Positions 1-64,000 of a stretch of DNA of 64,000 bases are shown one piece after another. Source of the stretch: Macrostomum lignano (taxonomy: Eukaryota). Position 1 is the stretch's first letter, and every line of letters begins with the position of its first letter. The position numbers were made by a program, and so were the translations under genes. The stretch is taken from NCBI GenBank assembly GCA_002269645.1, contig NIVC01003969.1:1-64000 (forward strand), read 5' to 3'. A model generated the notes under the pieces. The model did no database searches. It was not told where the DNA came from and was given only the letters and a program-made list of their open reading frames with translations.

Positions 1-3000
1 GCCTACGGAAAAACCTGTATGAAGTGCGGAAAAAAGAATCATTTTAGCAACGTCTGCAGATCTGGAGCTACTCGTTCGCTGCACCACACGACGGCAGACC
101 AAGGTGACGAGGGCGAAGAGCCAGCTCATTCACCGGGATCCATCATGCACCTCACCGACGCAAGTTCTGTGCACGCTATCAGCGAGACTATCGAAACGGT
201 GGTCGTCGATGGCAGAAGCCTGAGGATGCAGGTTGATACTGGGGCGTCTGTCTCAGTGATTTCAAGTGCGCAGTGGATTTCGCTGGGTCGCCCGCACCTG
301 CAAAAATGCTTTCGCCGCCTTGAGGCCTTTGATGGTCACGTCATGCGTACACTGGGCAAATTGTGCACCGCTGTGCAGCTCCGAGGACGTTTGCACCCAG
401 CAGAGCTTATGGTTGTTGCCTCAAGCAAGGCTCATGGTCTTATCGGCCGTGATCTACTGCAGTCAGATAAACTCTTTCACGCTACGGCCTTGCCATCTTA
501 CATCCAGCAGGCTGTGGAACCTCTGCCGACAATTAAGGGCGTGAAAGCCAAAATGGAGCTCGTGGACGGAGCCAGGCCACAGTTTTGTAGGGCTCGGCCC
601 GTACCAATCGCACTGGAGGCCAAGATCAACGCGGAGCTGGATCGATTGCAAATGTTGGGCGTCATCGAGCCCATTGAGGGCCCTGTCAACAACGCGTCGC
701 CCGTCGTGTGGGTGAAGAAGAAGGATGGCTCATTAAGAATGTGTGCCGACTATAGCGTACACGTCAACGCAAAAATCCAATCAGATTCCTACCCCATTCC
801 AAACGTCGAGACGATGTTCTCACGGCTCAAGAATTCAAAGACATTCGCTACTGTGGATTTGCGTTCTGCCTATTGGCAGATCGAACTGGATGATTCCGCT
901 CGGGATTTATCCGTAATAAACACATCCCGGGGCTCTACCGCGTCAATAGGCTTCAAATGGGGATGAAAAACGCTTCCTTCATCTTCCAACGCACAATGGA
1001 GTCCATTTTGGGTGATATTAAAGGTCTACTCATCTACCAAGATGATATTCTCGTACACGCACCGGACGCAGTCGTCTTGGAGAAGCGACTAGCGGCAGTC
1101 AGGAAGCGCCTCACCGAGAAGCGAGTGACTATAAACGAATCCAAGTGCATCAACTACTCTGACTCTGTGTCATTTCTAGGCTTCCGGATTTCCGCCGCCG
1201 GAATCCAGCCAGACGAGCGTCTCGTAGAGAAGATTCGCCATGTATGCGTACCGAAAAACAAGACGGAGCTCTCCCAGTTTCTAGGTCTAGTCAATTTCTT
1301 CGGACGATTGATTCCGAACTTTGCAGGCAAAACTGCTCCGCTTAACAGACTGCGAAAGGCTGGCATTCCGTTCACCTGGTCAGACGAGTGTTCCCGAGCC
1401 TTCAATAATCTGAAAGCGGAGATTGCATCCGCGCCGGTCGTGCAGCCATACAGTCTGACTAAAGAGCTGATTCTGACGACAGATGCGTCCAAAGGTGCAC
1501 TCGCCGCCGTGGCAACGCAGGAGGGTCATCCGGTAATATACGTCTCCCGTACCCTTTCGGCCGCTGAAAGCAACTATTCAAACATCGAACGCGAAGCACT
1601 TGCAATCTTCTGGGCCGTCTCCCGACTCAAGCATTTCCTACACGGTCGCAAGTTCGTGATTCAGACAGATCATCAGCCGCTACTGCGCCTCTATGGAAGC
1701 GGGATTCCGCTAAATACGTCAGCGAGGATTGGCCGCTGGGCCATGTACTTAATGCAGTTCGACTTTGACATCCGTTACGCGCGAGGGAGCAGCATTCCCC
1801 ATGCTGACGCAATTTCTAGACTGCGCTTTGACGACTGCACCTCGGACGACAAGGAGACGTTTGAAGCTATTAATGCTGTGGCTTTTGAGGCACCGGTGAT
1901 TGACGCAGATAGGGTTGCAGCCGAACTGAGTACTGACGCGTTCGCTCAACGCATCTTGGAGCGTGTACGCTCCGGCAATTGGAGGAGTTGCAGTCAGGCA
2001 GAGGCATCCTTCAAGAAGGTTGCGGAGACACTAACGCTGGAGAACGGGCTTCTCTATATGCAGAGACGCGTGTTTATACCACCGCGGCTGCGCAAGGCAG
2101 CGTTTGAGGCCGTTCATGACACCCATTCAGGTGCACAAGCTTCGTACAACCTGCTCTCAGCGTCCTGCTGGTGGCCTGGCATGCAGCAGGATGTAACCCA
2201 GTTTGTCCAGCGCTGCCCAGGCTGTTGCCACTTGCGACCTCGCTTGGGAAATGACAGAGACCACTGGCCGGCAGCTTCGTACCCGTTTCAACGTATCCAT
2301 ATGGACTGGGCCTATGTGAAGGACGCCGGTAACATTCTAGTCATCGTTGACACATTTTCTGGCTGGATAGAGGCATTCCCCTGTCGGAATAGAACTGGCG
2401 AATCAGTTATGCAGTGTTTGCGCGCAGTGTTCGCACGCTTTGGAGTGGCCGAGCTGGTAGTGTCCGATAATGCACCAGAGTTCATCGGTGATCCCCTCTA
2501 CTCTTGGCTACGGGCCAATGGTGTCCATAAACTTGAATCGCCAGCTTATTATCCACAGGCAAACGGAGCGGCCGAACGCGCTGTACAGACCGTCAAAGCT
2601 GCACTGCGCGCGTGGTCAGAGAGAATTACGCACATGGAATTCAGCCATTTTCTGCAGAAAGTGCTGCTCCACCATCGGAACTCAGCATCGTCGCGGGGGC
2701 AATGCCCGGCCGAGATACTGTTCGGCAAAAAGCTCAGAGTACCGGTGGTGACGCACTTTGAGCAAGGTGACGGCGTCATGTATCGGCCTACCGCCTCCGC
2801 AAGCACCAACTCAGCCACATTTCTAATGACGTCAGGGCGCAACACCGCATGGATTCTGGCTAAAAATGGATTGCACCTGGCCAGTACAAACCAACTGGCG
2901 CCCGCGGCCGATCCATTCGCCACCGACGAGGAGGATAGCTATGAAACCGACGCTCCAGTTCCGAACGTCGACGAGGACTCAAGAGACGAAGACCCTGCTA

Positions 3001-3092
3001 CGGGACAGGAGGGTCCAACCCAGGAGCATGGGGCTGCGTTGCCCCGCCGTAGCACCCGTGCATGCCGCGCGCCTGATCGCTTCTCACCATGA
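1..3092 (+). CDS. gag-pol polyprotein, split by one frameshift at about 929-932
   Basis: ORFs 19..966 and 957..3092 join into INTSRGLYRVNRLQMGMKNAS if one G is added to the GGGG run at 929-932. Confidence 0.9.
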
Positions 3093-6568: not shown

Positions 6569-6770
6569 AAAATTTCAAAACTCTTACGTAATCTATGCAC
6601 TTTATGGACACTATCTTGAATTCTTATCAGTCGATGCTTCTAAGGGGATTTGAGATAGGCCTAAGGTTACCTCCACCTTGCCTATGTCTCACCTTTAAGT
6701 CGCGCACCTGAAGTCACCCACCCCTTACTCTGCACCCACCCCTAAATTAATTACAAATATAAATATTTGC

Positions 6771-8308
6771 ATGTCTAGAGGTCAAATCTCAGATAGAGAA
6801 AAGCGGACGGCTGCAGAGATGGAGGCACCACTCATTAATTGGAAGCATTTGCCCTGCAGTGAGCTGGGCAACGTGACTAAGGACAAATTGAATTTTGTTT
6901 CGGAGGCTTCTTACAATGACAGAAGGGACAATGAGTTCGCTAGATTTCTCGAATTCATTCAAAAGGAGCCCGAGCCCAATGAGCATCTGCCGCTCCTGCA
7001 GGAAGGTGGCGTAGATATCAGCGCCATGGACATCGCCGAGATTGACAGCCTACCAGCAGACAGCAGGAAGCAGATGATCAGCCATGGACAGCGGTTCAAG
7101 ACATTCCTCACAGAGGAAAATCTTCAGCGCAATTTACAAACCATTCCGAATTCGGTGCTCAACCAATACATTCGCTACTTCTACTTTAAACTGAAGAAGA
7201 TTGACGGCAAACCTTACTTGCCCGCATCGCTGGTGTGCATCAGGGCTGGACTGCAGCACTATTTGTGGATGATTGAGAAGCTAACCGTTGACATCATCAA
7301 TGGAGAAGACTTTTCTTCTGCAAATAGCATGCTGCGTGTGAAGGTTCGAGACTTTCACCAGAGTGGTGGGAGGACGCAGCAGTTTGAGCCAATCGAGGAG
7401 GGGGACATGAGGAAGCTGATGATCTACTTCCAAGGCAGCACAGCTGAAGTTGAGCAGGACAAATTCTTATTCTACATCATATACAGCTTTGGCGAGCGAG
7501 GCCAGGAGCACCTCAAGTTCTTGAAGGATAGAAGCTCACTTCAATTGCACGTCGACTCTGATGGAAAGCCGTTCTACTGTCTGCCTCCGTTGCCCTCGAA
7601 AAATAAGTCAGCAGATCCAGAGAAGGCCAAGAAGCAGCCGGACAACAAGCAGGCCAGAATTTACGACGTGGAAAAGGTGGAGAAATACCTCAAGCTGCTT
7701 CCAGTTACAACGAAAGACAACAATCTGTTTCCTCGTCCTTTGGCCAGCCGCAACGATGGAGGCCCTGTTTTCTCCTCGAAGCAGAACCGTGGAGAGAATT
7801 ATCTGAGTGGCTTCATGAGAAAATTGAGTATGAAGGCGGGACTTGCGAAGACCTACACAAATCATTGCATTCGGTAAGACTGATAAATTAATAATAGTAA
7901 CTTTAATTATGTTATGATACATGTTATGTTACCAATTACTCATGAATCCAACTATATAAATTTGCACTCTAAAACAGGGTCACGCGAATATGCGATCTCG
8001 AGGCGGCAGGGCACAGCATGAGCAATATAATGAGCATTACTGGACAGCTGAGCGAGCGAACGACTAGGAGGTACCTAGCCAAGCGTCGCAACCAGTCGCT
8101 TCAAAAGACGAGTGAGTCTGTTCAGGTGGCATTGAATCGTCATGATCTAGAGCAAGAAGCTGGGCCACCCGAACATGCTGATGCTGTTGAGATCGTCGGT
8201 GAGACTGCAGTATCAACGGAGGTTAGTGTTAGCACTGAAGCTGCCTATTCTGTTGGTACGAAGTTTGCCTTCAACAATTGCACCTTTCACGGATGTTCCT
8301 TTAATTAG
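6771..8308 (+). CDS. Tyrosine recombinase (Crypton/DUF3504-like), 2 exons: 6771-7873 and 7978-8308, about 477 aa
   Basis: Motifs FYFKLKKIDGKPYLPASL..IRAGLQHYL, FGERGQEH and TNHCIR. A GT-AG intron (7874-7977) joins in frame to VTRICDLEAAGHSMSNIMSITGQLSERTTRRY. Confidence 0.85.
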
Positions 8309-45990: not shown

Positions 45991-48900
45991 CTAGCGCGAC
46001 TCGTCAGCTGAGTAGCGGACCAGACAGAACACAATGTCCGATGCCAGCATGGGGAAGTCGGGCGCTGGGTTAGTGATGACGTACCGGGCGATGAGAGCCT
46101 GCTCGCCCTCCTCTGGCGGGGTGATGAAGCGGTACAGGCCGATGCACAGAATCCCGTGCCGGTGCAGAGCGCCCAAGAACAGCTTGGAGAAGTCGCCCTG
46201 GCTGTACTGGCGGAGTCGCTCGTCGCTGACTGGCAGCTGGGCGACACGAGCTCGATCTCGCCTGCGCAGCGTTTCCGGACTGCAGAAGCCGCCTCGGATG
46301 CCGGCACCCTCGGCGAGAATCTGCTCCAGCTCAGGAGTGGCGCCGCCGGTCACCAGAGTCCGGATGAGGGTCAGCGCGTTCTCGTTGAAATACGCGGTGC
46401 TCATCAGGGAGTCCAGCACACTCACAGCAAACGAGGTGCCGCAGGCGAACGGCTGCGTCATGTAAAGCTCTGTGTCCGGATCGTCATCGTCGTCCTGCTC
46501 CAGGAATTGGACGTTTGCATCGACCGCCAACTCGGTGAGGATGCAAATGTTGTTGAGACGATTCGAGCCCGAGCCCTGTTCGACAGGCGGCGTGTCGAAG
46601 GCCATGGCCTTGATGTTCAGGGAGCACAAGATCGCCTCCTTGTCGACAAGAGTTGCATCGTCGCCCATTCCAGAGTTCTGCTTAGAGCTGAGCACGACGC
46701 ACATTTGAGCAAGGTTGATGTTCACCGCTCTAAGGTTGGAACGGTTTAGCGGGGAGCCCGGAAAGAAGCTCAGCTTGGGAAAGTTTATCAAGGTCTTCCA
46801 CTCGCGCCTCAGGTACTCCATGTTGCCGACAAATATGATGTGACGCAGCTCGCTATAATGAAAGTTGCTGGCCCTCAGAGGCATCACGAAGCTTCTGAGG
46901 CCAATTAAAGGACTTGATGAGTCTGCGAACACGCACACAACGATATGGTTGCTGAAAACTGTTAAATTCACCTGCTCCCGGCTCAGTACTAGCTCTTCAA
47001 ATGAGGTCTCTTGGCACCAGTGGAACATGCCTGTCGAGTCGAACCGTCGCTCGGACTGCTGCCCGAGTATTTTGGCTTCGTTAGGAGACAGAAGTGACGG
47101 TCTGCGGCTGCCGGCGTTGAGTTCGGTGCTCGCTGGAGCTGAGGTGCCGCCGACGCCGCTGCTGCTGGCGCTGCCGCCGTTTCCGCTGGGGTTTCCACTG
47201 CCACCATTGCCAGCCGGTGTTGTTGTCAGGTTCGCCGAGCTGTCCTTGCTGTGCCGATTGCGAATCACAGTCTTGCCGGCCGAATGCTTCGGGTTGCTCT
47301 GCCTGCAGCGGCATCGCTTCACCAGCTCTGGGTCTGCAACGTCGCTGTGGCATCGGCTGCAGTAGAAGTAGGCCTTCTTCACCTCTTCGGCCGACTGGGC
47401 AACGAAGAACCCCTGAGTGCCTGCCTCTACTTTGATGCCCTCCTTCGGGTTGATGGCGATGCCAGTCTCGCCTTCAATGGCAATCAACAGGAGGTGCAGC
47501 TTGCTGAAGCAAACCTCCGCTGCCGCAGGGAAACTCAGACCATCAAAAGCTGGCGATAGAAACTCGGTGTACATTTCCATGCCCGCCCCCTGCAAATAGT
47601 TGTTGAGCCATCTGGGGATGCTTTTCCCTTCACGGTAGCTGCGCATGGTAAACAGATTCGCCAACAGGGTGGAGAAGCCGAACGCCATGCAGCTCTGAGC
47701 CAGGAAGCCTAGCTTCAGCTCGGCGACGCAGACGGCATCGTCGCCTTGCTTCCAGTCCCAGCTGGGGATGTTGAGCAGGTAGGTCTTGTTGTGGTACTGC
47801 ATCAGCTGGATGATCACCTTGATGCGCTCGCAGAAGTTTTTAATTGAGATGACGCGCATGATGTTGGCGGCATCCTCGGCATCCGGGTCGGGGCAGTACT
47901 TGTTGGCCAGCACCAGACAGGCATCTGCAGACTCCAGGCCCACCCTGGCCAGGTCCCTCGTGTTCATCACGGAACCCTGAAAGAATTGAACCTGCGTGAA
48001 ATGTCGCTTCAACAGGCCTTGCATCTCCAGGTCGGGTACGTGCTTGTCCAGCACCACAATCTGAACGTCGACATCCTCGCGATCCTCGTGCAGAAAATCG
48101 CCAAGAAAGTTGGCCACCGATTCGAAGGTGATGTGGCCGCACAGCACGATGTGCTGTTTGCCTGCCTCCTTGCGAAAGTGGCCGCCGTACTTGTTGCGCG
48201 AGCTGAGGATGTCCGCAATCTCGGGGATAGAGTTAGCGAACACGGCCAGGCCGCCCATGATGACCAGCGCGGAGCCGATTTTGCCCGAGATCGTGGTGCA
48301 ATAAACGTCTCCGTAGCCAACGGTTGACATTGTGACAATGACAAAGTAGATGCAGGTGAAGTAGTTCATGTCGTATAAGGTATTTTTGTTGGTAAAATTT
48401 GGCGGATCGCCAGAGTTTTCGACCAGGTGGATGAGACCTGCCGCGGTCAGGACCAGAGAAGCAAAGAAAGTGATCAGCTGTAGCAGCCGAATCCCTGTGC
48501 TGGTTCTTAGAATGTTTAAGTATTGAAGCACGTCCGGCAGGCTGAGAATTCTCAAGGCCCTGGTGGACCTGAGGCCGATCCAGTTCTGGTCAAGATAGAC
48601 GGCAACAAATGACGGAGGAATGGTTAGAATATCCACTATGCTGTACATTTCAAACCAAAACCACAGTTTGTCCTGGGCGGCTATAAACCGAACAAAAAAG
48701 TACACCAGAAAAATGACATTAAATGCCAGGTCCACCTGCTGCGTGACGCTTTCGGACCAGGCGACGCACTCCTCCGTGTTTTTCATTCGGACGGTGTCAA
48801 TTTGGTACACAACAAGAGACGCCATGCTCACGATGAACACCAGAACTACCAGGATCCTACCCGTAGACGTCTGACCCGAGATGAGCTCGCCAGCCCAGTC

Positions 48901-49167
48901 CTTGGCTTCAGTGAGCCAGCTGATCTCTATCTGCTCCGACTCCTCCTCCGGAGGCTCCTCGTCCTCGTCAGTCTCCGGAGCGTAGCTTCGCTGCCCGCTG
49001 CCGATCCCAGAGCGGTGGCGCTGAATTAGGCGGCCGATGAACCGGCTCAGGAGGACAGTCAGAATGCCGCCTACCAGGGCGATCGCGCTGGACGCCAGAA
49101 AGATGTGCCACTTCCGGTGCTCAACGCAAGCAAGTTCCGGTGATGAAGAGGCATTGCTGCTAGACAT
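45991..49167 (-). CDS. KCNMA1: Slo1/BK calcium-activated potassium channel alpha subunit, single exon, 1058 aa
   Basis: S0 (FLASS), [14 protein letters not shown], pore TVGYGD, RCK1 ([12 protein letters not shown]), heme motif CSRCH, calcium bowl [12 protein letters not shown]. Confidence 0.97.
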
Positions 49168-52100
49168 GGTTGGCAGGCTTGGTTGTTGGCAGCCCCCCTT
49201 ACACAGCGATACTGTCCCCTAGGTTAGGATGCAGTCGAAGTATCGAGAAATCCAATGCAATTTTCTAGTTGCAGGATCTCGTGATTTTGATTTCACTCGC
49301 GACTGATTTTCGATATTTTCTGGCTGCTTCCTTCGGTGAAGACATTTTAATATTGTTTCATTCTCGCTCTCTTTCTCTCTCTCTCTCTTCGGTAACGCGT
49401 GCTAATCACTCCCGCCCTCTACGCTTTCACCATTGGCTGAGTAACGAAACTAAACGCGGTTGGCTGACGAAACAGCAAAATCGTGGCATGGCTGGGTGAG
49501 AAGTACGCGCGCCATCCCCACCCCCGCGAGTGCTATGGTGTCGCGAGACGTTTGCTGTTGCGCTAAGCTGAGGTGAGGCCTTGTCTCAGCTGTTCCTGAT
49601 TCCCGCTCCCCCACCCCACTATTTCTTTCCCTTGCTCCCCTCTCTGCTTATATCTCATTGCCCACCTCGCTCCCTGATCCCACAGGCCTTTTCTGCTTCC
49701 GCGTGAGCGTGCGGGTGCTTAGGTTGAAGAATGAGAGCAAGAGAGAGAGGGAAAGGGACAGGGAGGGAATTACGGAATCCCGCAGCACTTTTGAGTGCAA
49801 AGCAGCTCATAACGCCACCTAACGCCCCGTCCGCTTCCTTGGACCAAGTCCTCCACGGTTTTAGGGGCTAAACAGAAAGGGGGTCGGTTGAGCAGTAACG
49901 CTGCCGCCATCTCAGTCTCAGAGCACTGTGGGGGCATTATCCAGTGCAACTCCCCCCCCCCACAGATAACCCCCTGGGGGCATGGGAGGCCTCTCTGTCT
50001 TGTTCTGCCTTCCTGTCTGTCCCCACCCGCCAGTCCGCTCAAACACTTTAATGCTTTTTTCTTCCGCATTTTCTCTCTCTCGCTCTCTCTCTGCGGCGGA
50101 GCTTTGCATTAATAAATACAAATTTTATACGCCTAAAAATGCAGAGCCAGCTTATGTAACAAGCCGGAACAGCGGGTCAAAAAGCCGGGCGGACAAGCCC
50201 CCCCCTCTCCCCGTCGTCCCCGGCCCCCTCTTGCGCATCCTGAATTTATTAAATGCTTTGAATAAAAAAAGTTTGGTGTGACTGTCAGAGCAATGCTGCG
50301 CAAAATGCTGAGATGGGGCAGGGGTGCATAGCCTACGGCTCAAGCATACGCTCGTAGAGAACACCTGGTTGGATGATGTAAAGCCGCCTTCTGCTTCTTA
50401 TATTTTACCCGCGATTTCCTATATGCCTAAAAATCATAAAATATGGCACAGCTCGACTCATAGTTTTTTATGACTCTACTAGCGTCTTTTATAATTTCGG
50501 CAAAGCATAATTGTCGGCAAAGCATAATAAAAAAGAAAGAGTCCTAAAACCAATGAGTCGATCCGCGCCATTTTTATATGATTTTAAACACAGTGCATGT
50601 ACGATTGTACGTAGGATATAAAATTGAATATCAATAGAGCTATAATATAAGAAAGGCAAAAAATAACAAAAGATGAACACTTGGGTCTCCCTTCTATTAA
50701 AAAGCAATAAAAAATTTTGCGTTGAAAAATGAAGCCTCCTATCTCCGTAATGTCTTTTTTGGTAAAACATAGCTATCTAAAATTTTCCAAAAAACGTTAC
50801 ATTAGTTTCAAGGCTCGTTCCAGAATACCGCCGTGACACATAATGAGTTGGTTGTCGTCTCTGTCCCCTACAGCCCCCTCTGCAAACTTACTAATATAGC
50901 CAGTAGCTTTATGTATGTGTAACACGCAACTGACAGTGTTTATACAGTTCAAGAGGTATCCTTTGGTCGACTGATTTGCACTTCAGGTCACGCGGTGACA
51001 GGATGTCAAACTTCGTTACGTCTATATGAGGTTCTCTGGTCTTTCAACCGAGGTTAAGTGCATAGAGCCCGCTATAGTGAAGTAAATGAGCTACAAGAGG
51101 TGAAGCCGTGAGGTGCAGCTCCAATTAGCGTTTTTAGCGGTCATAAATTTAATTGGATTGTTGATGCCTATCATCAAATTTGAAGCTAAAGGATATACTT
51201 CCGTACTATTAGAAATTCCCTACTGAATGCTTCCAATCGTCCTTTAAAGGCTTGAATGATCGAAGAGCTCCGGCACAAACCTGCAATATCATTGTGCTGC
51301 AATAGAGCCATATACTGTAAATGAGCAAACACGAACTTTCACAGTTGCACAATGAGCCTGCAGTATCGAGGATTAAATTATATGCAAATGTAATTGGCTG
51401 TGTTGCTACAGGATGGAGCAGGTTAGTGATAAACTCGTCTGACTCTGGCGCCACGACACCTGGTTTGGTTCTGTGCATCTCTACACGCTATGAGTATGAG
51501 CGTGTTTGCTCAGGATGTGCTCACGAGTCAGCGGATGTGTCCAGAATTGCCGTCAGCGCTGATTGTGGGACATTTTCACCGACGTGTCCACATCTCTTCC
51601 TGCAATTGCTCATGCTCATGTGGGCTGTTGAGATGCCAAGTGTCAATAGGGAGATGTTGGTACGCCAAGCATCAAAGGGAGAGTTAGCGTTAAGACATGG
51701 CGGAAAGTGAGCTAGGATTTGATGTCAAAGCTGAAAGGGGGTGCTGATATCTTTTGCTACGAGTAGATACTCGCGTAGCAGCTGACTTTCAAACATCTTT
51801 TTTTCCTTAAGAAACTAAAGAAACTTGTATGTAACACAATGTCGAAAGCTACATATGTAGCTTATTAAAAAATATTCATTTTTGTTGCCTTCCTATAAGA
51901 GAGAGAAGAATGCTAGTCCTCCATAGATAAAAAATGACAGTAAAGCTCGACAGTAATGTCTACTGAATGGTAGATGAGTTTCTGGGAAGCGTACGTCTCG
52001 AGAAAAGCAGGAAAGTCTCGAGATTGATAAAGGAGTCTCGAGATAATTATGGAATGGAACGATGAAATGATGGATGGAAGAGTCTGAAGACTGATGAGTA

Positions 52101-52523
52101 TCATTGAAGAGTCTCGAGAATGACTGAAGAGTCAGGTTGCAGAGAAGGCTGCTGCTGCTGCTGCTGCTGCTGTCATTCCGCCCGGATCGGAATGGCTTGA
52201 TGACTGCTAGGCTGTAAAATATGCAAAAAAATCCACAAAGTTTTTTATTGATTCAAACGACATAAAAACGTTTTGCCCTGCAGATAGGAAGCAGCTTCGA
52301 AGTTTTTATGCTCCAAATTTTAATTGGAAAATTTGAAAACTTCTTCAAACAAGTCAAGCTGCGGTGCTAGAAAGCTAGAAAAGTTTCTTTATTCTAGTTG
52401 GTTACAGTCCTTAACTTTGCTAATAAATACTTTTACAGCAGAAGAATATCGGTTGGAAGGTTTATATCTCTAGCCCGCTACTTAAAGTAACAGAGAAAGG
52501 GTTTTATTAGTAGAACATCTTGC

Positions 52524-56711: not shown

Positions 56712-57989
56712 ATGAGGCCAGATCCGAAGAAATACCAGATTTTAGCTTGGCTGCTTAAAGCGGCTCTCGAGCACACTATGCCAGATCTCGAGGGTGAAAA
56801 CTGCAGCACCGGTTCGCTGGGAAACTGGACAACTCAGTTTTATCCTACGACTCAGTATCCTTTCAGTGAATCGTGGAACAAATTTCACTGGTGCGTCTTT
56901 GTTTGGCTGTTTCCGACGCTCTGCTTTGTTGGCGGCGTGATGAATTCGCTCTGCTTCTGGGTGATCCTGAGGCATCGCCGCCTGTTCCCGAGGGTCACTC
57001 GGCTGTTCATGCTCATCATTAGCCTGAACGATGCTCTCATCCTACTGCTGAAGGCACCGACGCATTATTTGACTTACATGTCGCAGCCGTTCGTAGCAAA
57101 TGCCTGGGACTGGTTCGTCAATCCATTTTACGGCAGTCACGCTGGTTGCATTCTCTATGTGTTCGTCACCCACTATGCCCTGTTTGGTGCGCCTTTCTTT
57201 CAGCTGGGCCTCACTGTGGATCGCCTGGTAGCCGTGGCGACTCCGTTAAGAGCTCGGCGCATTATGACAGTGACAAAGACTGCAGCTCTGCTAGCTGCGG
57301 TGACCACTTTGGCCATGGTACTGCCGGTACTGCGCACGGCCACAACTAGCTGGAATGCAGACACTTCAGCCTGCATCGTTGGGGAGAACCAATACTATGA
57401 GTCAACCTATGTGAAGCTCGAACTGTTCTATGGCCGAGTGGCTCTGACTGTCTGCCTCATCTCTGGCTCGCTGGTGATTTGCATCCTTCTCCGCCGGTCG
57501 GATGTTGCGGCAGCCGATGCTGCAGCTGAACTGGGTCAGGCCAACAACAGAACGGCCGCTGTGCGAAGATTCCGGACACTCACTCGTCTCAGCATTCTGT
57601 TGGGCCTTTTCAATGCAGCCTTTTTGATTTGCAATCTACCTTGGAGTTTGGCCGAAATGTTGCATCTAGTTGGCGCCCTCGACCAGATACCGTCGAACAC
57701 TTACGAGCTTCTCTTGCGTCAATTGAACACTCTGATGTACTTTCAGTGCGTTCTAAACGTTCTGGTGTACTTTTCTGGCGGAAGCTTCAGACAGAAGTTC
57801 TCCGCTACCTACTCTCGCGGCTGTTGTCGGCAAATCTGTTGTTGCTGTCCTCAGCAGTCGGGCGCGATTGTCGAAGCAAACGTCTTCTCGTTCAGCGGGA
57901 CCGTTAATCCCATGGCTGCCGCCGGTAGATATCAGAGAAATCGAGACTCCGGATTCAGAAACGTTCGCGACTCAACCAAGAACTGTTAA
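56712..57989 (+). CDS. Class A peptide-type GPCR (FMRFamide/Srw-like), intronless; ATG may be 56778
   Basis: Seven hydrophobic segments, GGVMN in TM1, LTVDRLVAVATPLR (DRY variant), CNLPW in TM6, LNVLVY in TM7, N-glycosylation sequons. Confidence 0.88.
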   Translation: MRPDPKKYQILAWLLKAALEHTMPDLEGENCSTGSLGNWTTQFYPTTQYPFSESWNKFHWCVFVWLFPTLCFVGGVMNSLCFWVILRHRRLFPRVTRLFMLIISLNDALILLLKAPTHYLTYMSQPFVANAWDWFVNPFYGSHAGCILYVFVTHYALFGAPFFQLGLTVDRLVAVATPLRARRIMTVTKTAALLAAVTTLAMVLPVLRTATTSWNADTSACIVGENQYYESTYVKLELFYGRVALTVCLISGSLVICILLRRSDVAAADAAAELGQANNRTAAVRRFRTLTRLSILLGLFNAAFLICNLPWSLAEMLHLVGALDQIPSNTYELLLRQLNTLMYFQCVLNVLVYFSGGSFRQKFSATYSRGCCRQICCCCPQQSGAIVEANVFSFSGTVNPMAAAGRYQRNRDSGFRNVRDSTKNC

Positions 57990-58917: not shown

Positions 58918-59339
58918 ATGCATCATTGCATTCGGAAACTTGTGTATTTAGCTGCCGTCGCTACGTTTATTTGCTGTGTGGCTCTTCAAAGCTGTACAAC
59001 GGTCAGATATCACAGGCTAAATCTGGAACCGTCAGAGACACTGACTAAATCCGATAACAAAGCGACGCATTCAGCAGTGAATATTGGCGGATTTCACGCT
59101 CACTACCGACAGTTGCGAGAGGAAATCACTCGAAAATATTTGTACTGGTTTGATCGGCACAAACTCCTGCCAGTGATGCGGCTCAAGTCTGAGGAGGCCA
59201 ACTTTCAACTACGAGTGAAAGCTGGTCTAGAGTGGATGCATCGGCAGGACCTGGTGGTGGCAATCACTGTTCGCGATGCAGCTCAAGGCCTGCCCGACTC
59301 GCTGGCGAACCTCGACCGTTTGAGAGCCCTGTTTAACAG
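58918..59339 (+). CDS. First exon of a type II membrane protein, possibly a GT-A glycosyltransferase
   Basis: N-terminal TM anchor, then LVVAITVRDAAQGLPDSLANLDRLRALF, a beta-alpha start typical of GT-A folds. Donor AG|GTTTGT at 59340. Confidence 0.55.
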
Positions 59340-59699
59340 GTTTGTGAAGGGGCTGTCTTTTCAATGCCTTACAAAATATTATTTTTATCCTCGACTCCGC
59401 CTTCTTTTTCCATTCCTGGAGACTTCAATTTTATTAAAAACTAAATCTGGACTGCAGTATTACTAGTAGGACTCTGATTGCAGAAAGGGTTTTGGTCATG
59501 AGGTCACCATGGCACCCTGGCAATTCCGCTGGGTCCTGAGAACAGACAAACGCGCCAATACTGCATGTACGCAGGCACGCACTCGTACACACGCTCACAC
59601 AGGGTGTACAGCAGTTCTGACTTTCTAACCGTCATGAATGTCCACTCTCTTTAGTAGAAGGCATGAGGGGGCTTTTGGGACAAAATTTTTCACATCCTC

Positions 59700-59910
59700 C
59701 ATAATCCCATTAAATCCATCCATATTATCCCCGACAGAATCAGAAAAAAAGGGGGGTCGCACTCGCTCACAAAACGTCCTCCATAATCCCATTAAATCCA
59801 TCCATATTATCCCTGACAGAATCATGAAAAAGGGGAGGGGCCGCACTTGCTCCGAAAACTTCGAACATAATCCCATTAAATCCATCCATATTATCCCTGA
59901 CAGAATCAGA
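59700..59910. repeat. Three 82-84-bp subterminal direct repeats
   Basis: CATAATCCCATTAAATCCATCCATATTATCCC at 59700, 59782 and 59866. Confidence 0.92.
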
Positions 59911-60114
59911 GCAGGTGTCCACTGATACCCGTTATGCTCACTGACACTGACATAATCCACTGACATCCACCCATAGCATCTTCGAAACAATCAGAAAATA
60001 ATCTGCATTCTTATCCCCACATTCGATTCGCAACATGAAACCAGATCCCAAAGACTTTAAATCATCAGCGCAGGGTCCTTACCCTTTGAAAAAAAAATTA
60101 AATTCTCAATAAAA

Positions 60115-60351
60115 ATGTTTCCAGTTGTCTCTCCAGGTTCCTATTATACTCAGCCTCATCCATTGTACAAATCCAAGTACCGATGCAAACTTGAATGCAG
60201 CGAATACATGAGAAAATATTGGCCCAACGTTGATATCCATGTCCCTAATATTAATCTAGCTCTCCAAAGACACTGGTTTCATAAGTATGGAGTAGTCATT
60301 AACGATTACGACAGCTACTATAACTTTGCAGAAATCATTAGGCAATTGTGA
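60115..60351 (+). CDS. Small Tyr-rich viral ORF (78 aa), function unknown
   Basis: AATAAAAATG start context. Its stop lies 4 bp from the convergent mCP stop. Confidence 0.6.
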   Translation: MFPVVSPGSYYTQPHPLYKSKYRCKLECSEYMRKYWPNVDIHVPNINLALQRHWFHKYGVVINDYDSYYNFAEIIRQL

Positions 60352-60355
60352 TTTC

Positions 60356-61219
60356 TTACATTCTCTCAATGATCAACGTCAATACAAACTCTTCACCGTT
60401 GAAATCAACACCCATCCCATCTTCAGTCTCAAACTGTAGCACAATCTCGTGAATCTCCTTATTACTCAATACAACTCTTTTCACTGGATTTGGTTTCTCT
60501 ACCACCATCTGTCCTCCAGCAACAGAGTTGGAGATGTTGTACAAAATATTCGTTCGCTTTCCCTTAAATACCCAATCAAGACTGAGATTGCTTCTGATTA
60601 GAATATTCAAACCCTTTACAATGTCTGCAATATTGGGTGCTAAGAACAAACCGCTTACACTTTCCCGGACCATTCTAACAGTCCCCGATGCTTGAGTGGC
60701 GGTCCGCGCCGCGGATTCTGCCTTATAAACTTTCTTCTCGAATCCCAGTTCCCTATACCAAGTGTCATCTTTAAACTCAACCTCCGCATCTTTGTGAACT
60801 TGCATGACCACTCTCATTACAGTGAGATCATAGGTTAGTTTGACAGGGAACAGTTTCTTCTCTGGCTTACTCGCATCAGGTGTCTCAAAATGGCCTCTCT
60901 TAGTAAAGACATTTTCTAGAAAGTAATTGTAGGTATCCACACTTTGCGTGCTCACATGGAATACCACAGGGTCTGCTGCTGCACCTTTCCATTTGTAATA
61001 AAACTTATTATTTGCTGCCATCACATTGGGAACGTTTGACCAACCAGTGAAGTCGTTAAGATAGACATGGTAATTAGCGCCTGGATCCAGGCTAATCGCC
61101 TGCTCTAATTTTTGAACAAATATCCCGTTTGAGTCATTAATCCGCCCAGTTATTGTAATAGGAATGCTCTCCTTGGAGTGCGAAATAATATTGTTTAGTC
61201 TTTCGGCTATAGCTTCCAT
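60356..61219 (-). CDS. Minor capsid protein (penton, single jelly roll), 287 aa from ATG 61219
   Basis: VPN..NNKFYY ... NILIRSNL..KGKRTNILY..GQMVVEKPN..IHEIVLQFETEDGMGVDFNGEEFVLTLIIE follows the Polinton mCP pattern. Confidence 0.82.
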   Translation of the reverse strand: MEAIAERLNNIISHSKESIPITITGRINDSNGIFVQKLEQAISLDPGANYHVYLNDFTGWSNVPNVMAANNKFYYKWKGAAADPVVFHVSTQSVDTYNYFLENVFTKRGHFETPDASKPEKKLFPVKLTYDLTVMRVVMQVHKDAEVEFKDDTWYRELGFEKKVYKAESAARTATQASGTVRMVRESVSGLFLAPNIADIVKGLNILIRSNLSLDWVFKGKRTNILYNISNSVAGGQMVVEKPNPVKRVVLSNKEIHEIVLQFETEDGMGVDFNGEEFVLTLIIERM

Positions 61220-61243
61220 TTTTTTCACCCACAAAAAAAATAT

Positions 61244-62530
61244 TTAAACTTTACTGGATGAATTGTTGATCATGTTAAGCTTCACCTTCCTCTCAAATGC
61301 ATAGATAATGTACAGGTCCACGGGTGTTGCGACAGTCCTCTCAATGTTAGTCACGATATTCACAGGGCTGTTATCAGTAGGCATTTGTCTGGCAGACACA
61401 TCAGCGCCAAACATCGGATATAGAGTTCCATATTGAAGAGCAGTGATAGCAATTCCATTGTTCTCTTTCACAGCCAAGTCGACCAACTCGCTGTAAAATT
61501 TGCTAATCTTGTTCTGACTGAAATCTCCATTTTGTGGCAGTGCAGGGTAAAGATTATCACTGATTTCATGCTGAATGGACCGCACGTCTCCATGCATGTA
61601 GCGTATAATGCTATTTGGGTTTCTCATATTAATAATGATATACCTTGGATTGCTGCATGATCCCTCTTTAATGCAGATATTTGTTCTAGTTTCGTTTCGC
61701 TCATCTCGACACATGTAGGCCGTGTATGCAACATCAATGTCCTTCTCTATTGCCTTAAGATAATCCGCTTTTAGTGCAGTCTTTGGCTCAATGACTTCCA
61801 AATACAGCTCGATTCCGGTTAGCTTCACCTCCATCCTAGTGTGGTCCGCCCCAGTCCACAACACTCTACTGCGATCATCTCTAGTCAGTCTAAATGTGTA
61901 GCTAAAGTTACTAGTCAGTCGATTAAATGTATTACAGAATCCACTCATGAATCTCAATGGTACAAATACATCAACAGACCGATACTGCGGGTTCTTAGCA
62001 GCATCATCAGCACCTTGCAATGCATAGTTGTATCTCTTCTTCCTATTTTTATAGCCACTGTCATTGATATCTCCTTCTTTTTCGTCTGCAATAAAACCCG
62101 CACCACTTCCCAATTGAATAAAATCAGTATTCTCGATCAAACAATGAGCGTCATAGACAATTCCAAAGTTGGCGATTCGCTCCAACTCAGTGCTCCCATT
62201 CGATACACTAAACTCCTTGAACATGTACGCCCAAAAGTTACTGATCAGAGCCACATCCGCATCATGCTTGTCAACGTTAGCACGAGCCGCATCCGCACCA
62301 CCCTTTGTCTTGAATTGAAATGTCATATGGAAGCCGCTCCTTAGACTGTGGACACTGACCAAAGACGAACATCCATTGTATGTAAATGTCAGTGTTTGGC
62401 CAGGACCAAGATTAGTTTCATTCTGATTTTCCTGACTGGGAACTCTTACCTGAGTCGCTTTGATTGTGCTATCATCACTCAAAATAGGCTTGTTAATTTT
62501 GTAGAAAACTGGTGTCAGTGGGTCGTTCAT
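61244..62530 (-). CDS. Major capsid protein (double jelly roll), 428 aa, intact
   Basis: DDSTI ... ISNFWAYMFKE..NG ... VPLRFMSGF..F..LTR ... PRYII ... YPALPQNGDF..Y ... GADVS ... YAFERKV follows the Polinton MCP pattern. Confidence 0.85.
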   Translation of the reverse strand: MNDPLTPVFYKINKPILSDDSTIKATQVRVPSQENQNETNLGPGQTLTFTYNGCSSLVSVHSLRSGFHMTFQFKTKGGADAARANVDKHDADVALISNFWAYMFKEFSVSNGSTELERIANFGIVYDAHCLIENTDFIQLGSGAGFIADEKEGDINDSGYKNRKKRYNYALQGADDAAKNPQYRSVDVFVPLRFMSGFCNTFNRLTSNFSYTFRLTRDDRSRVLWTGADHTRMEVKLTGIELYLEVIEPKTALKADYLKAIEKDIDVAYTAYMCRDERNETRTNICIKEGSCSNPRYIIINMRNPNSIIRYMHGDVRSIQHEISDNLYPALPQNGDFSQNKISKFYSELVDLAVKENNGIAITALQYGTLYPMFGADVSARQMPTDNSPVNIVTNIERTVATPVDLYIIYAFERKVKLNMINNSSSKV

Positions 62531-62560: not shown

Positions 62561-63738
62561 ATGAAGCGAAAAAGTACACAGCAGATATCTGAATTGGAGA
62601 AGCTAGCACAAGCAGAGAAACGAGTTACCGGGCTAATAAATAAGGAGCAACAATCCTACAATGAGTTTGTCCAAGCAGCCACCGAATTTCACAAACCCGG
62701 ATACACAGAAGCGAAGAAAAACCTCGACACTGTGAAGGAAGCAGTTGATGATATTCAAGAGAGCCACTTGCAAAACACATTGGGTAAAATCCCATCTTCA
62801 CCAGGACAACCACAGGCTCAGGAACCAGGACAACCGGTGCAGATGAAAGTGACGGATAACTTTTTTGGCCCCGTAGTGGATGATGGAAAATATATTTTTG
62901 GAATTAGCGCCTGGCGAAAAAATATTACCGGGGAACCGGCGGATTACAACATTGAAGTGACAAAGGAAAACATTTCAATCAATAAAGGCGCAAAAACTAA
63001 AAGAATCCAGTTCACTCAAACTTTACTTGATTACATGACTAAAAATCTAGAGAATACGTCTAAAAAGCAGCTCAAAAATTACAAAGATCTTGTTACCTTT
63101 GCTCTCGATAGGGATATAGATATGCTCAAGAACAACGGTGTTTTGAAAATTTTACATGAAAACGGGATTGTCTTGAACAGATTTAGAAAATACAAATACT
63201 TTAAACAATGGTTTGGTTTGCCGGATCAGGAAGAGGTCATAAGACAACAACCACAACAACAACAGCAACAACAGCAACCGCCACAACAGCAGCCACATTT
63301 ACAGAAGTACTCAGGCAACTGGAAAATGCAGATCCGACTCAAGTAGCTAAATATAAAAATGATCACCCAACAGACTGGCAACACTTAGAACAACACTCTC
63401 CAGATCGAATGAACAGAATCAAGCAAAGAGTTTTCACACCTCAACAAAGACAGGCGCCACATGACAGTTCCATCTCTGAAAGTGAGCAGTCTTTTGGATC
63501 ACCTCCCCAGCAGCCACAAGCCCAACCAACTCCACAACCCCAAGACCAACCACCCAAATCTGGAAAAGGAATAGCTGAAATCTACAAGCGAGTAGCGGTT
63601 CTTCTAGGAGCGGCAAAGACCGGAATGAAAGACGAGTATAGAAAAGAATTTGTCAACATCCTGGACAAAATGCTTGAGAGAAAATACATCGATAAGAGGG
63701 CGAGAGAGCTTCTGCTTTCGCGGTTCAACAAAAAATAA
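62561..63738 (+). CDS. Polinton conserved hypothetical protein(s): two overlapping frames (62561-63346, 63208-63738), possibly one frameshifted gene
   Basis: C-terminal RVAVLLGAAKTG..EFVNILDKMLERKYI resembles the conserved Polinton RL.LL.A..AGN..EI..I..EL motif. The overlap lies in a CAA/CAG tract. Confidence 0.6.
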
Positions 63739-63754: not shown

Positions 63755-64000
63755 ATGCCACTTATTTTCGAAAAAGACATTGACAAATACTATGACAAAG
63801 AGGAACTTAATCTCATTAAACGCGGATCTGGACTTTTCCCTGCAGGCCACTATCCAAGAAAAGAACGCTCTGGGAATGGCCTTGCCGATTTGATCGCTCA
63901 GGGGGCTAAGATTTTTAAGGTCATTGGAGAGAACAAAGAGAACATCAAGAACGTTGCCGAAGCGGCTGGCAGTGTAGCCACAGCAGCCAAAAAGATTAAA
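63755..64000 (+). CDS. Viral ORF truncated by the window; GxG motifs followed by an amphipathic helix
   Basis: My translation is MPLIFEKDIDKYYDKEELNLIKRGSGLFPAGHYPRKERSGNGLADLIAQGAKIFKVIGENKENIK..., open to the end of the window. Confidence 0.6.
   Translation, partial: MPLIFEKDIDKYYDKEELNLIKRGSGLFPAGHYPRKERSGNGLADLIAQGAKIFKVIGENKENIKNVAEAAGSVATAAKKIK

Follow-up and report, generated by a model that had tools for sequence, protein, structure and literature searches.

What do two open capsid genes in an animal genome represent: a virus that can still form particles, or one worn copy of something more common? The window analysed here is the whole stretch of 64,000 nucleotides from position 1 to 64,000 of contig NIVC01003969.1 in the Macrostomum lignano assembly GCA_002269645.1. 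Near its right end a sequence-only reading had placed the major capsid protein (MCP) and penton genes of a Polinton or adintovirus, thought to be recently integrated, free of decay and possibly virion-competent. We are fairly confident that these genes form the capsid-encoding end of a Polinton of about 16 kb, which is flanked by a 6-bp target-site duplication (TSD) and belongs to a young family numbering about 230 elements or more, with capsid genes that were likely under selection during its spread, and that this insertion itself is likely not autonomous.

Insertion site and host surroundings

The element starts at position 59653, and its length of about 16 kb is of the Polinton/Maverick/adintovirus type (Table 1). 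A twin contig, C27, matches the window contig and its flank at 99.6-99.8% identity from window position 52148 up to where the contig stops, and pairing of the left terminal repeat with the far end of the element in this twin extends over 875 bp at 92% identity. The repeat overlaps the 3' end of the penton gene, and the 78-aa ORF inside it may not be a gene. A further locus, on C217, is 97% identical and continuous over the insertion point without the element. The TSD matched in the twin and this empty locus thus identify a true insertion, which is more recent than the separation of the C217 and window loci.

Table 1. Features of the element and its flank in the window
Feature	Position	Strand	Basis or remark
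Intronless rhodopsin-family GPCR, host flank, outside element	56712..57989	+	PF00001, E 1.9e-15
6-bp target-site duplication, left copy	59647..59652	.	Identical 6 bases flank far terminus in twin C27
Left terminal inverted repeat	59653..60527	+	Starts AGTAG; contains four 82-85-bp internal repeats
78-aa ORF within terminal repeat	60115..60351	+	Without family
Minor capsid protein (predicted penton), 287 aa, single jelly roll with insertion domain	60356..61219	-	Alignment-based fold model
Major capsid protein (MCP, predicted), 428 aa	61244..62530	-	PF21738, double jelly roll family
Conserved gene of about 400 aa, no assigned function	62561..63738	+	Two pieces here (261 + 176 aa); 392-aa single ORF in twin
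Conserved gene of about 129 aa, no assigned function, start only	63755..64000	+	Continues beyond window

The host is an animal, since the window contains both the GPCR gene and a Slowpoke/BK potassium channel gene (45991-49218, minus strand). The latter is a single uninterrupted frame of about 1056 codons, and an intronless BK channel gene is unusual. Elsewhere in the window a Ty3/gypsy-like pol region (1-3092, plus strand) has protease, reverse transcriptase (RT), RNase H and integrase recognizable by eye in two frames, and a 392-codon frame (6699-7877, plus strand) resembles, also by eye, a tyrosine-recombinase-like/DUF3504 protein. The host flank includes a 182-aa ORF (58918-59466, plus strand) whose N-terminus is hydrophobic and which belongs to no Pfam family, and immediately to the left of the insertion lies a high-copy repeat of about 45 bp (59566-59612), which is the only part matched by many contigs from DNA runs and from runs guessed to be RNA.

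Because the contig stops within the element, it might be taken for a contaminant or a chimera, an explanation that we consider next to impossible. Against it stand the TSD, the twin contig with the same flank, the empty paralogous site and the host genes, and at least half of the capsid words are present in 20 runs of one organism from seven studies, one of them possibly the source of the assembly; no RNA run was listed among the runs that contain these words. A contaminant or chimera is ruled out by the junction evidence, and the proposed integration into an animal genome is well founded.

Capsid genes

The two capsid ORFs are uninterrupted, in the same orientation and 24 bp apart, as had been reported. 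The product of the longer is, by its profile matches rather than by any model, a predicted double jelly-roll MCP. As a single query it matches PF21738 in Pfam with an E-value of 1.5e-5 and 24.8 bits, under the 27-bit cut-off, and 53 of the 57 sequences aligned with it match PF21738 and no other family, the best with an E-value of 3.9e-51. Its single-sequence model (pLDDT 31.6) is unusable, and a search of PDB sequences with the MCP profile returned nothing significant. The nearest MCP relatives in public contigs are seven sequences at 70-77% identity and two at 44%, with the remainder mostly below 35%. An undescribed host-specific lineage, which the sequence-only reading had raised, is conceivable alongside these relatives.

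A Pfam scan of the penton gave no match. A model built from a 24-sequence alignment (pLDDT 81.6) retrieves the mavirus penton first in a fold search (E 1.2e-9), followed by adenovirus, Sputnik and PBCV-1 chains, and with an independent aligner six viral capsid chains score at Z 10.0-12.4, the next row at 7.5. The superpositions have an rmsd of 10-15 Å in five of these six chains, the first chain superposing at 3.1 Å over 131 residues. Judged by this model, the 287-aa ORF encodes a single jelly-roll penton. In the ESM Atlas both capsid proteins fall among clusters of viral 'hypothetical' proteins, one of them a PF21738 cluster, with recognition below threshold for both. The identification of a Polinton/adintovirus capsid module therefore stands, on PF21738 for the MCP and on a fold like those of mavirus, Sputnik and adenovirus for the penton. 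The accompanying claim that there is no sign of decay holds for the MCP and penton ORFs only; the next gene is in two pieces, a break that is likely to be a contig-end assembly error.

Other genes of the element and relatives

The contig ends inside the element at 67284. Its final 3.3 kb encode the ATPase and the protease, both in pieces, together with two additional ORFs. Polymerase, pX, integrase and phospholipase A2 (PLA2) genes are found in the twin and in other copies, so that the genes predicted to lie beyond 64000 are all accounted for, the protein-primed polymerase by its motifs. Complete copies are typically 15-16.5 kb long, with the order penton, MCP, ~400-aa ORF, ~129-aa ORF, ATPase, ~270-aa ORF, ~230-aa ORF, protease, polymerase, pX, integrase and PLA2. 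Matches above the Pfam cut-offs were obtained in another copy for Pox_A32 (PF04665), Peptidase_C5 (PF00770), Adeno_PX, rve (PF00665, E 2.2e-9; present in the twin at 94%) and PLA2 (PF08398, E 1.2e-13), the pX match lying in an ORF separate from that of PLA2. For four element ORFs, including the hydrophobic ORF of about 230 aa, no match to a Pfam family passes the cut-off.

The polymerase gene has about 1300 codons and family-B motifs read by eye. Neither a Pfam polymerase nor a PDB match was found, the only hit being a sub-threshold one to endonuclease VII, and the designation as a putative protein-primed family B polymerase rests on motifs and context. One Cys motif and one His motif can also be seen by eye. 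Terminal-protein and vOTU domains have been described in the Polinton polymerase (PMC11161782).

Taken together, the predicted gene content and ends are those of a Polinton/Maverick element (Polintoviricetes): terminal inverted repeats (TIRs) with a TSD, a PF21738 MCP, a penton, an rve integrase, an ATPase, a protease and a polymerase assigned by motifs. As described in PMC8097293, vertebrate Mavericks likewise have a length of 15-17 kb, TIRs starting AGT and a 6-bp TSD; they encode a polymerase, rve integrase, ATPase, protease, MCP and penton, show purifying selection on morphogenesis genes, and are broken in the majority of copies. Their copy number has a median of 8 and a maximum of 287, the latter copies all defective; the family described here lies near the top of that range, yet its copies are 96-98% alike. 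It differs further in having the terminus AGTAGA rather than (AGT)2 or (AG)3, in carrying PLA2 and pX genes, and in terminal repeats that vary from about 0.2 to 5.5 kb between copies.

The element also resembles the adintoviruses, as characterized in PMC8502044, in its animal host, adenain, PolB, rve integrase, FtsK-type ATPase, hexon, penton, parvovirus-type PLA2 and adenovirus pX-like protein. In that account the Alpha adintoviruses are defined by a PolB matching pfam03175, with PLA2 typical of their virion modules, whereas Beta adintoviruses are marked by a divergent PolB of Terrapene type and by GasderminX/cupiennin genes. PF03175 was matched neither by the N-terminal 1059 aa of our polymerase (E<=0.1) nor by its C-terminal pieces (E<=0.01), and in this the element departs from the Alpha group. 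It does have a PLA2 domain; the PLA2 and pX matches fall in separate ORFs, whereas the Alpha virion module has a PLA2X gene. The pentons of mavirus, the Sputnik virophages and adenovirus (penton base) resemble that of the element in fold, at a sequence identity of about 10-13%, and no helper giant virus is known for this element. Further Polinton context is given by 10.1101/2023.08.22.554363, PMC6431247 and PMC11131425.

Decay or assembly error in the insertion at 59653

Over 9.3 kb the window contig departs from its twin by 3 substitutions and at 15 places where the length differs by one base, every one of these 15 in a base run and no more than 4 kb from the contig end. We infer that these are consensus errors, so that frameshifts in this assembly say little. 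Damage to the twin is nevertheless evident: its polymerase is split by a 5.9-kb element with endonuclease, RT and RNase H and by a 1.2-kb RT fragment, its right end is present twice with 9 kb of unrelated sequence in between, and its ATPase ORF is broken. The 9-kb segment (C27:374868-383892) contains a pair of direct repeats of about 900 bp at 95% identity and is possibly an LTR element. The window contig stops about 570 bp short of the first twin insert, and its own haplotype might lack both inserts.

The sequence-only reading had proposed here an intact, possibly virion-competent provirus, and the open MCP and penton genes, the error-like character of the length differences and the ending of the contig before the twin inserts are all compatible with one. 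We nevertheless consider it quite unlikely for this insertion. The twin, at 99.6-99.8% identity, has the two RT-bearing inserts, the duplicated right end and the broken ATPase, and its two terminal repeats are merely 92% alike. Moreover, the element is one of hundreds of near-identical copies, and two open capsid ORFs are therefore to be expected from youth alone. The insertion at 59653 is likely to be crippled and no longer autonomous. More widely, stops arising by substitution occur in every gene class represented by enough copies. A full polymerase frame of about 1300 codons was found in none of the sampled copies, and in the 35 that have the motif the longest runs to 1097 codons. Of 1579 candidates the 43 best were compared, and two of these, not counting the query's own copy, cover at least 1000 residues without a stop.

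Size, age and variants of the family

Exact matches to the terminus number 462 in the assembly, against none for the reversed control, and this corresponds to at least about 230 elements, short derivatives and twins counted. MCP matches are 98-100% identical in all 98 scored, these being the best 98 of 660 candidates, and the capsid block is 96.5-98% identical to that of the window in 40 copies and about 78% identical in three. The suggestion of recent integration agrees with these near-identical copies and with the empty C217 site. Both ends are seen in 42 of 57 stretches, a set in which two twin pairs are counted twice, with a perfect 6-bp TSD in 30, one mismatch in 4 and none in 8. The MCP is unbroken in 37 of 43 copies, a proportion inflated by the choice of 36 of the 43 from the best MCP matches; when eight copies were picked by their termini, the MCP ORF was complete from its usual start codon position in two, and one further copy was not callable.

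A second capsid variant is present at C66, C298 and C33, with amino acid identities of 82-83% for the MCP and 79-80% for the penton. These copies have the same termini, a polymerase region that is 94-96% identical and a near-identical integrase, a pattern that suggests either exchange of the capsid module or a second sub-lineage. Ordinary full-length copies have arms of about 0.2 to 0.9 kb, and the two ends are closer within a copy than between copies (0.27 vs 1.06 mismatches per 38 bases; 0 of 2000 shuffles).

Short derivatives, 0.6-3.6 kb long, that have both termini as well as a TSD were found at C32:1150965-1151833, C124:22982-23697, C289:58541-59180 and C544:473028-476600, those on C124 and C289 being a single site. 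At C1098:26001-56000 and C2829:72001-93793 there are partial copies, in tandem or nested, that have several termini and no matching TSD in the fetched stretch. Assembled contigs of three runs guessed to be RNA cover coding and non-coding parts of the element, none of them on unique flank, and at hundreds of copies are indistinguishable from DNA carry-over.

Foldback copies

At four insertion sites, each with a perfect TSD, one arm of the element is duplicated in inverted orientation. Several of these were chosen for their palindromic look, and four sites give no frequency. One capsid-arm foldback is a single site in three contigs that share the flank (C276:289398-300645, C1652:28604-39932 and C3945, about 57496-68440); its 4.7-kb arms are 99.6-99.9% alike and its core occurs in both orientations. 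The other capsid-arm foldbacks have arms of 4.8 kb (C633:134497-147606) and 1.75 kb (C1584:127375-135893), and in all three the polymerase and integrase are absent or residual. The fourth (C975, about 122373-133902) is a replication-arm foldback, with an arm of 5.5 kb and no capsid genes. Three junctions were searched for evidence of spread in trans, with 40 candidates scored for each, and each was found at one insertion site only, which gives no support to such spread; for one junction a bridging contig is absent among the 32 of 5084 pieces shown. Our literature search, whose coverage stopped short of Repbase, subscription journals and supplements, yielded no paper in which this Polinton family, or Polintons with foldbacks, are described.

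In the adenovirus cycle, and in that proposed for Polintons, a strand can fold back on its terminal repeats and have its ends repaired. By analogy, the foldbacks are likely to be products of such repair, although they may instead reflect post-integration repair or misassembly. A bolder idea, which we put forward as possible if rather unlikely, is that the family is still active, making particles and re-inserting, and that the foldbacks are copy-back defective genomes from panhandle replication that were integrated by helper copies.

Selection on the capsid genes

To compare constraint between genes, the codons of each copy were counted against the commonest codon per column, a crude, treeless measure of pN/pS for which 36 of the 43 MCP copies had been selected by their MCP score. 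The copy on C1652 was excluded throughout and the twin C27 for MCP, penton, ATPase and protease; the shared-frameshift counts of the polymerase, which include alignment artefacts, and the PLA2 row, with two copies, were discarded. For variants shared by at least two copies, pN/pS is 0.05 for the MCP (175 synonymous and 36 non-synonymous, 43 copies), 0.11 for the penton (43 copies), 0.05 for the ATPase (42 copies), 0.14 for the protease (39 copies), 0.08 for the integrase (32 copies), 0.15 for pX (34 copies) and 0.05-0.14 for parts of the polymerase. For private variants it is 0.23-0.73, and stops occur among them. The low shared and higher private values indicate that the capsid genes were constrained like the integration genes in the source lineages and that drift followed insertion. 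From these sequence comparisons, selection for particle formation likely acted on the capsid genes during spread, although the shared variation could predate entry into the genome, in which case the selection may have acted in a virus population outside the host and not during spread within it. The same argument from selection has been made for vertebrate Mavericks (PMC8097293).

Two other explanations of the open capsid genes deserve mention. A purely intracellular, self-synthesizing transposon could have capsid genes that are open only through a recent burst, and it is true that the copies are young, with 1.6-3.1 private substitutions per kb in all but one of nine gene regions, that TSDs also flank copies without capsid or replication genes and the 0.6-0.9-kb derivatives, and that particles are not known here. 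We think this unlikely, as shared MCP and penton variants are constrained as much as those of the integrase and polymerase, and the second capsid variant sits on the same ends beside a closely similar polymerase region. It is very improbable that the host has kept the capsid genes for itself, or for a virophage-like defence against a giant virus. The mavirus penton is the closest in fold and some foldback copies have doubled capsid arms without replication genes, but private variants move towards neutrality, stops included, and the doubling is not specific to the capsid, as the replication-arm foldback without capsid genes attests.

Biological implications

We thus favour a Polinton whose capsid genes were selected as its family spread. 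By analogy with Polinton and adenovirus biology, an excised or incoming linear genome would be copied from its terminal repeats by the protein-primed polymerase and packaged by the A32-type ATPase into shells of MCP and penton; the shells would be matured by the adenain-type protease, and re-insertion would be the work of the rve integrase.

Open capsid genes in animal Polintons are already known, and their finding as such is ordinary. Some value lies in the family, whose young copies number in the hundreds and which offers an unoccupied site, capsid genes under purifying selection and foldback derivatives, the last of which bear on how the ends of the element are repaired. Should the family indeed be active and the foldbacks be of copy-back origin, they would prove the Polinton replication model at the genomic level, and the animal would be a tractable host for seeking natural Polinton virions. 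Particles of endogenous animal Mavericks were unobserved as of 2021 (PMC8097293), and a host with so young a burst is a sensible place to seek free genomes or particles.
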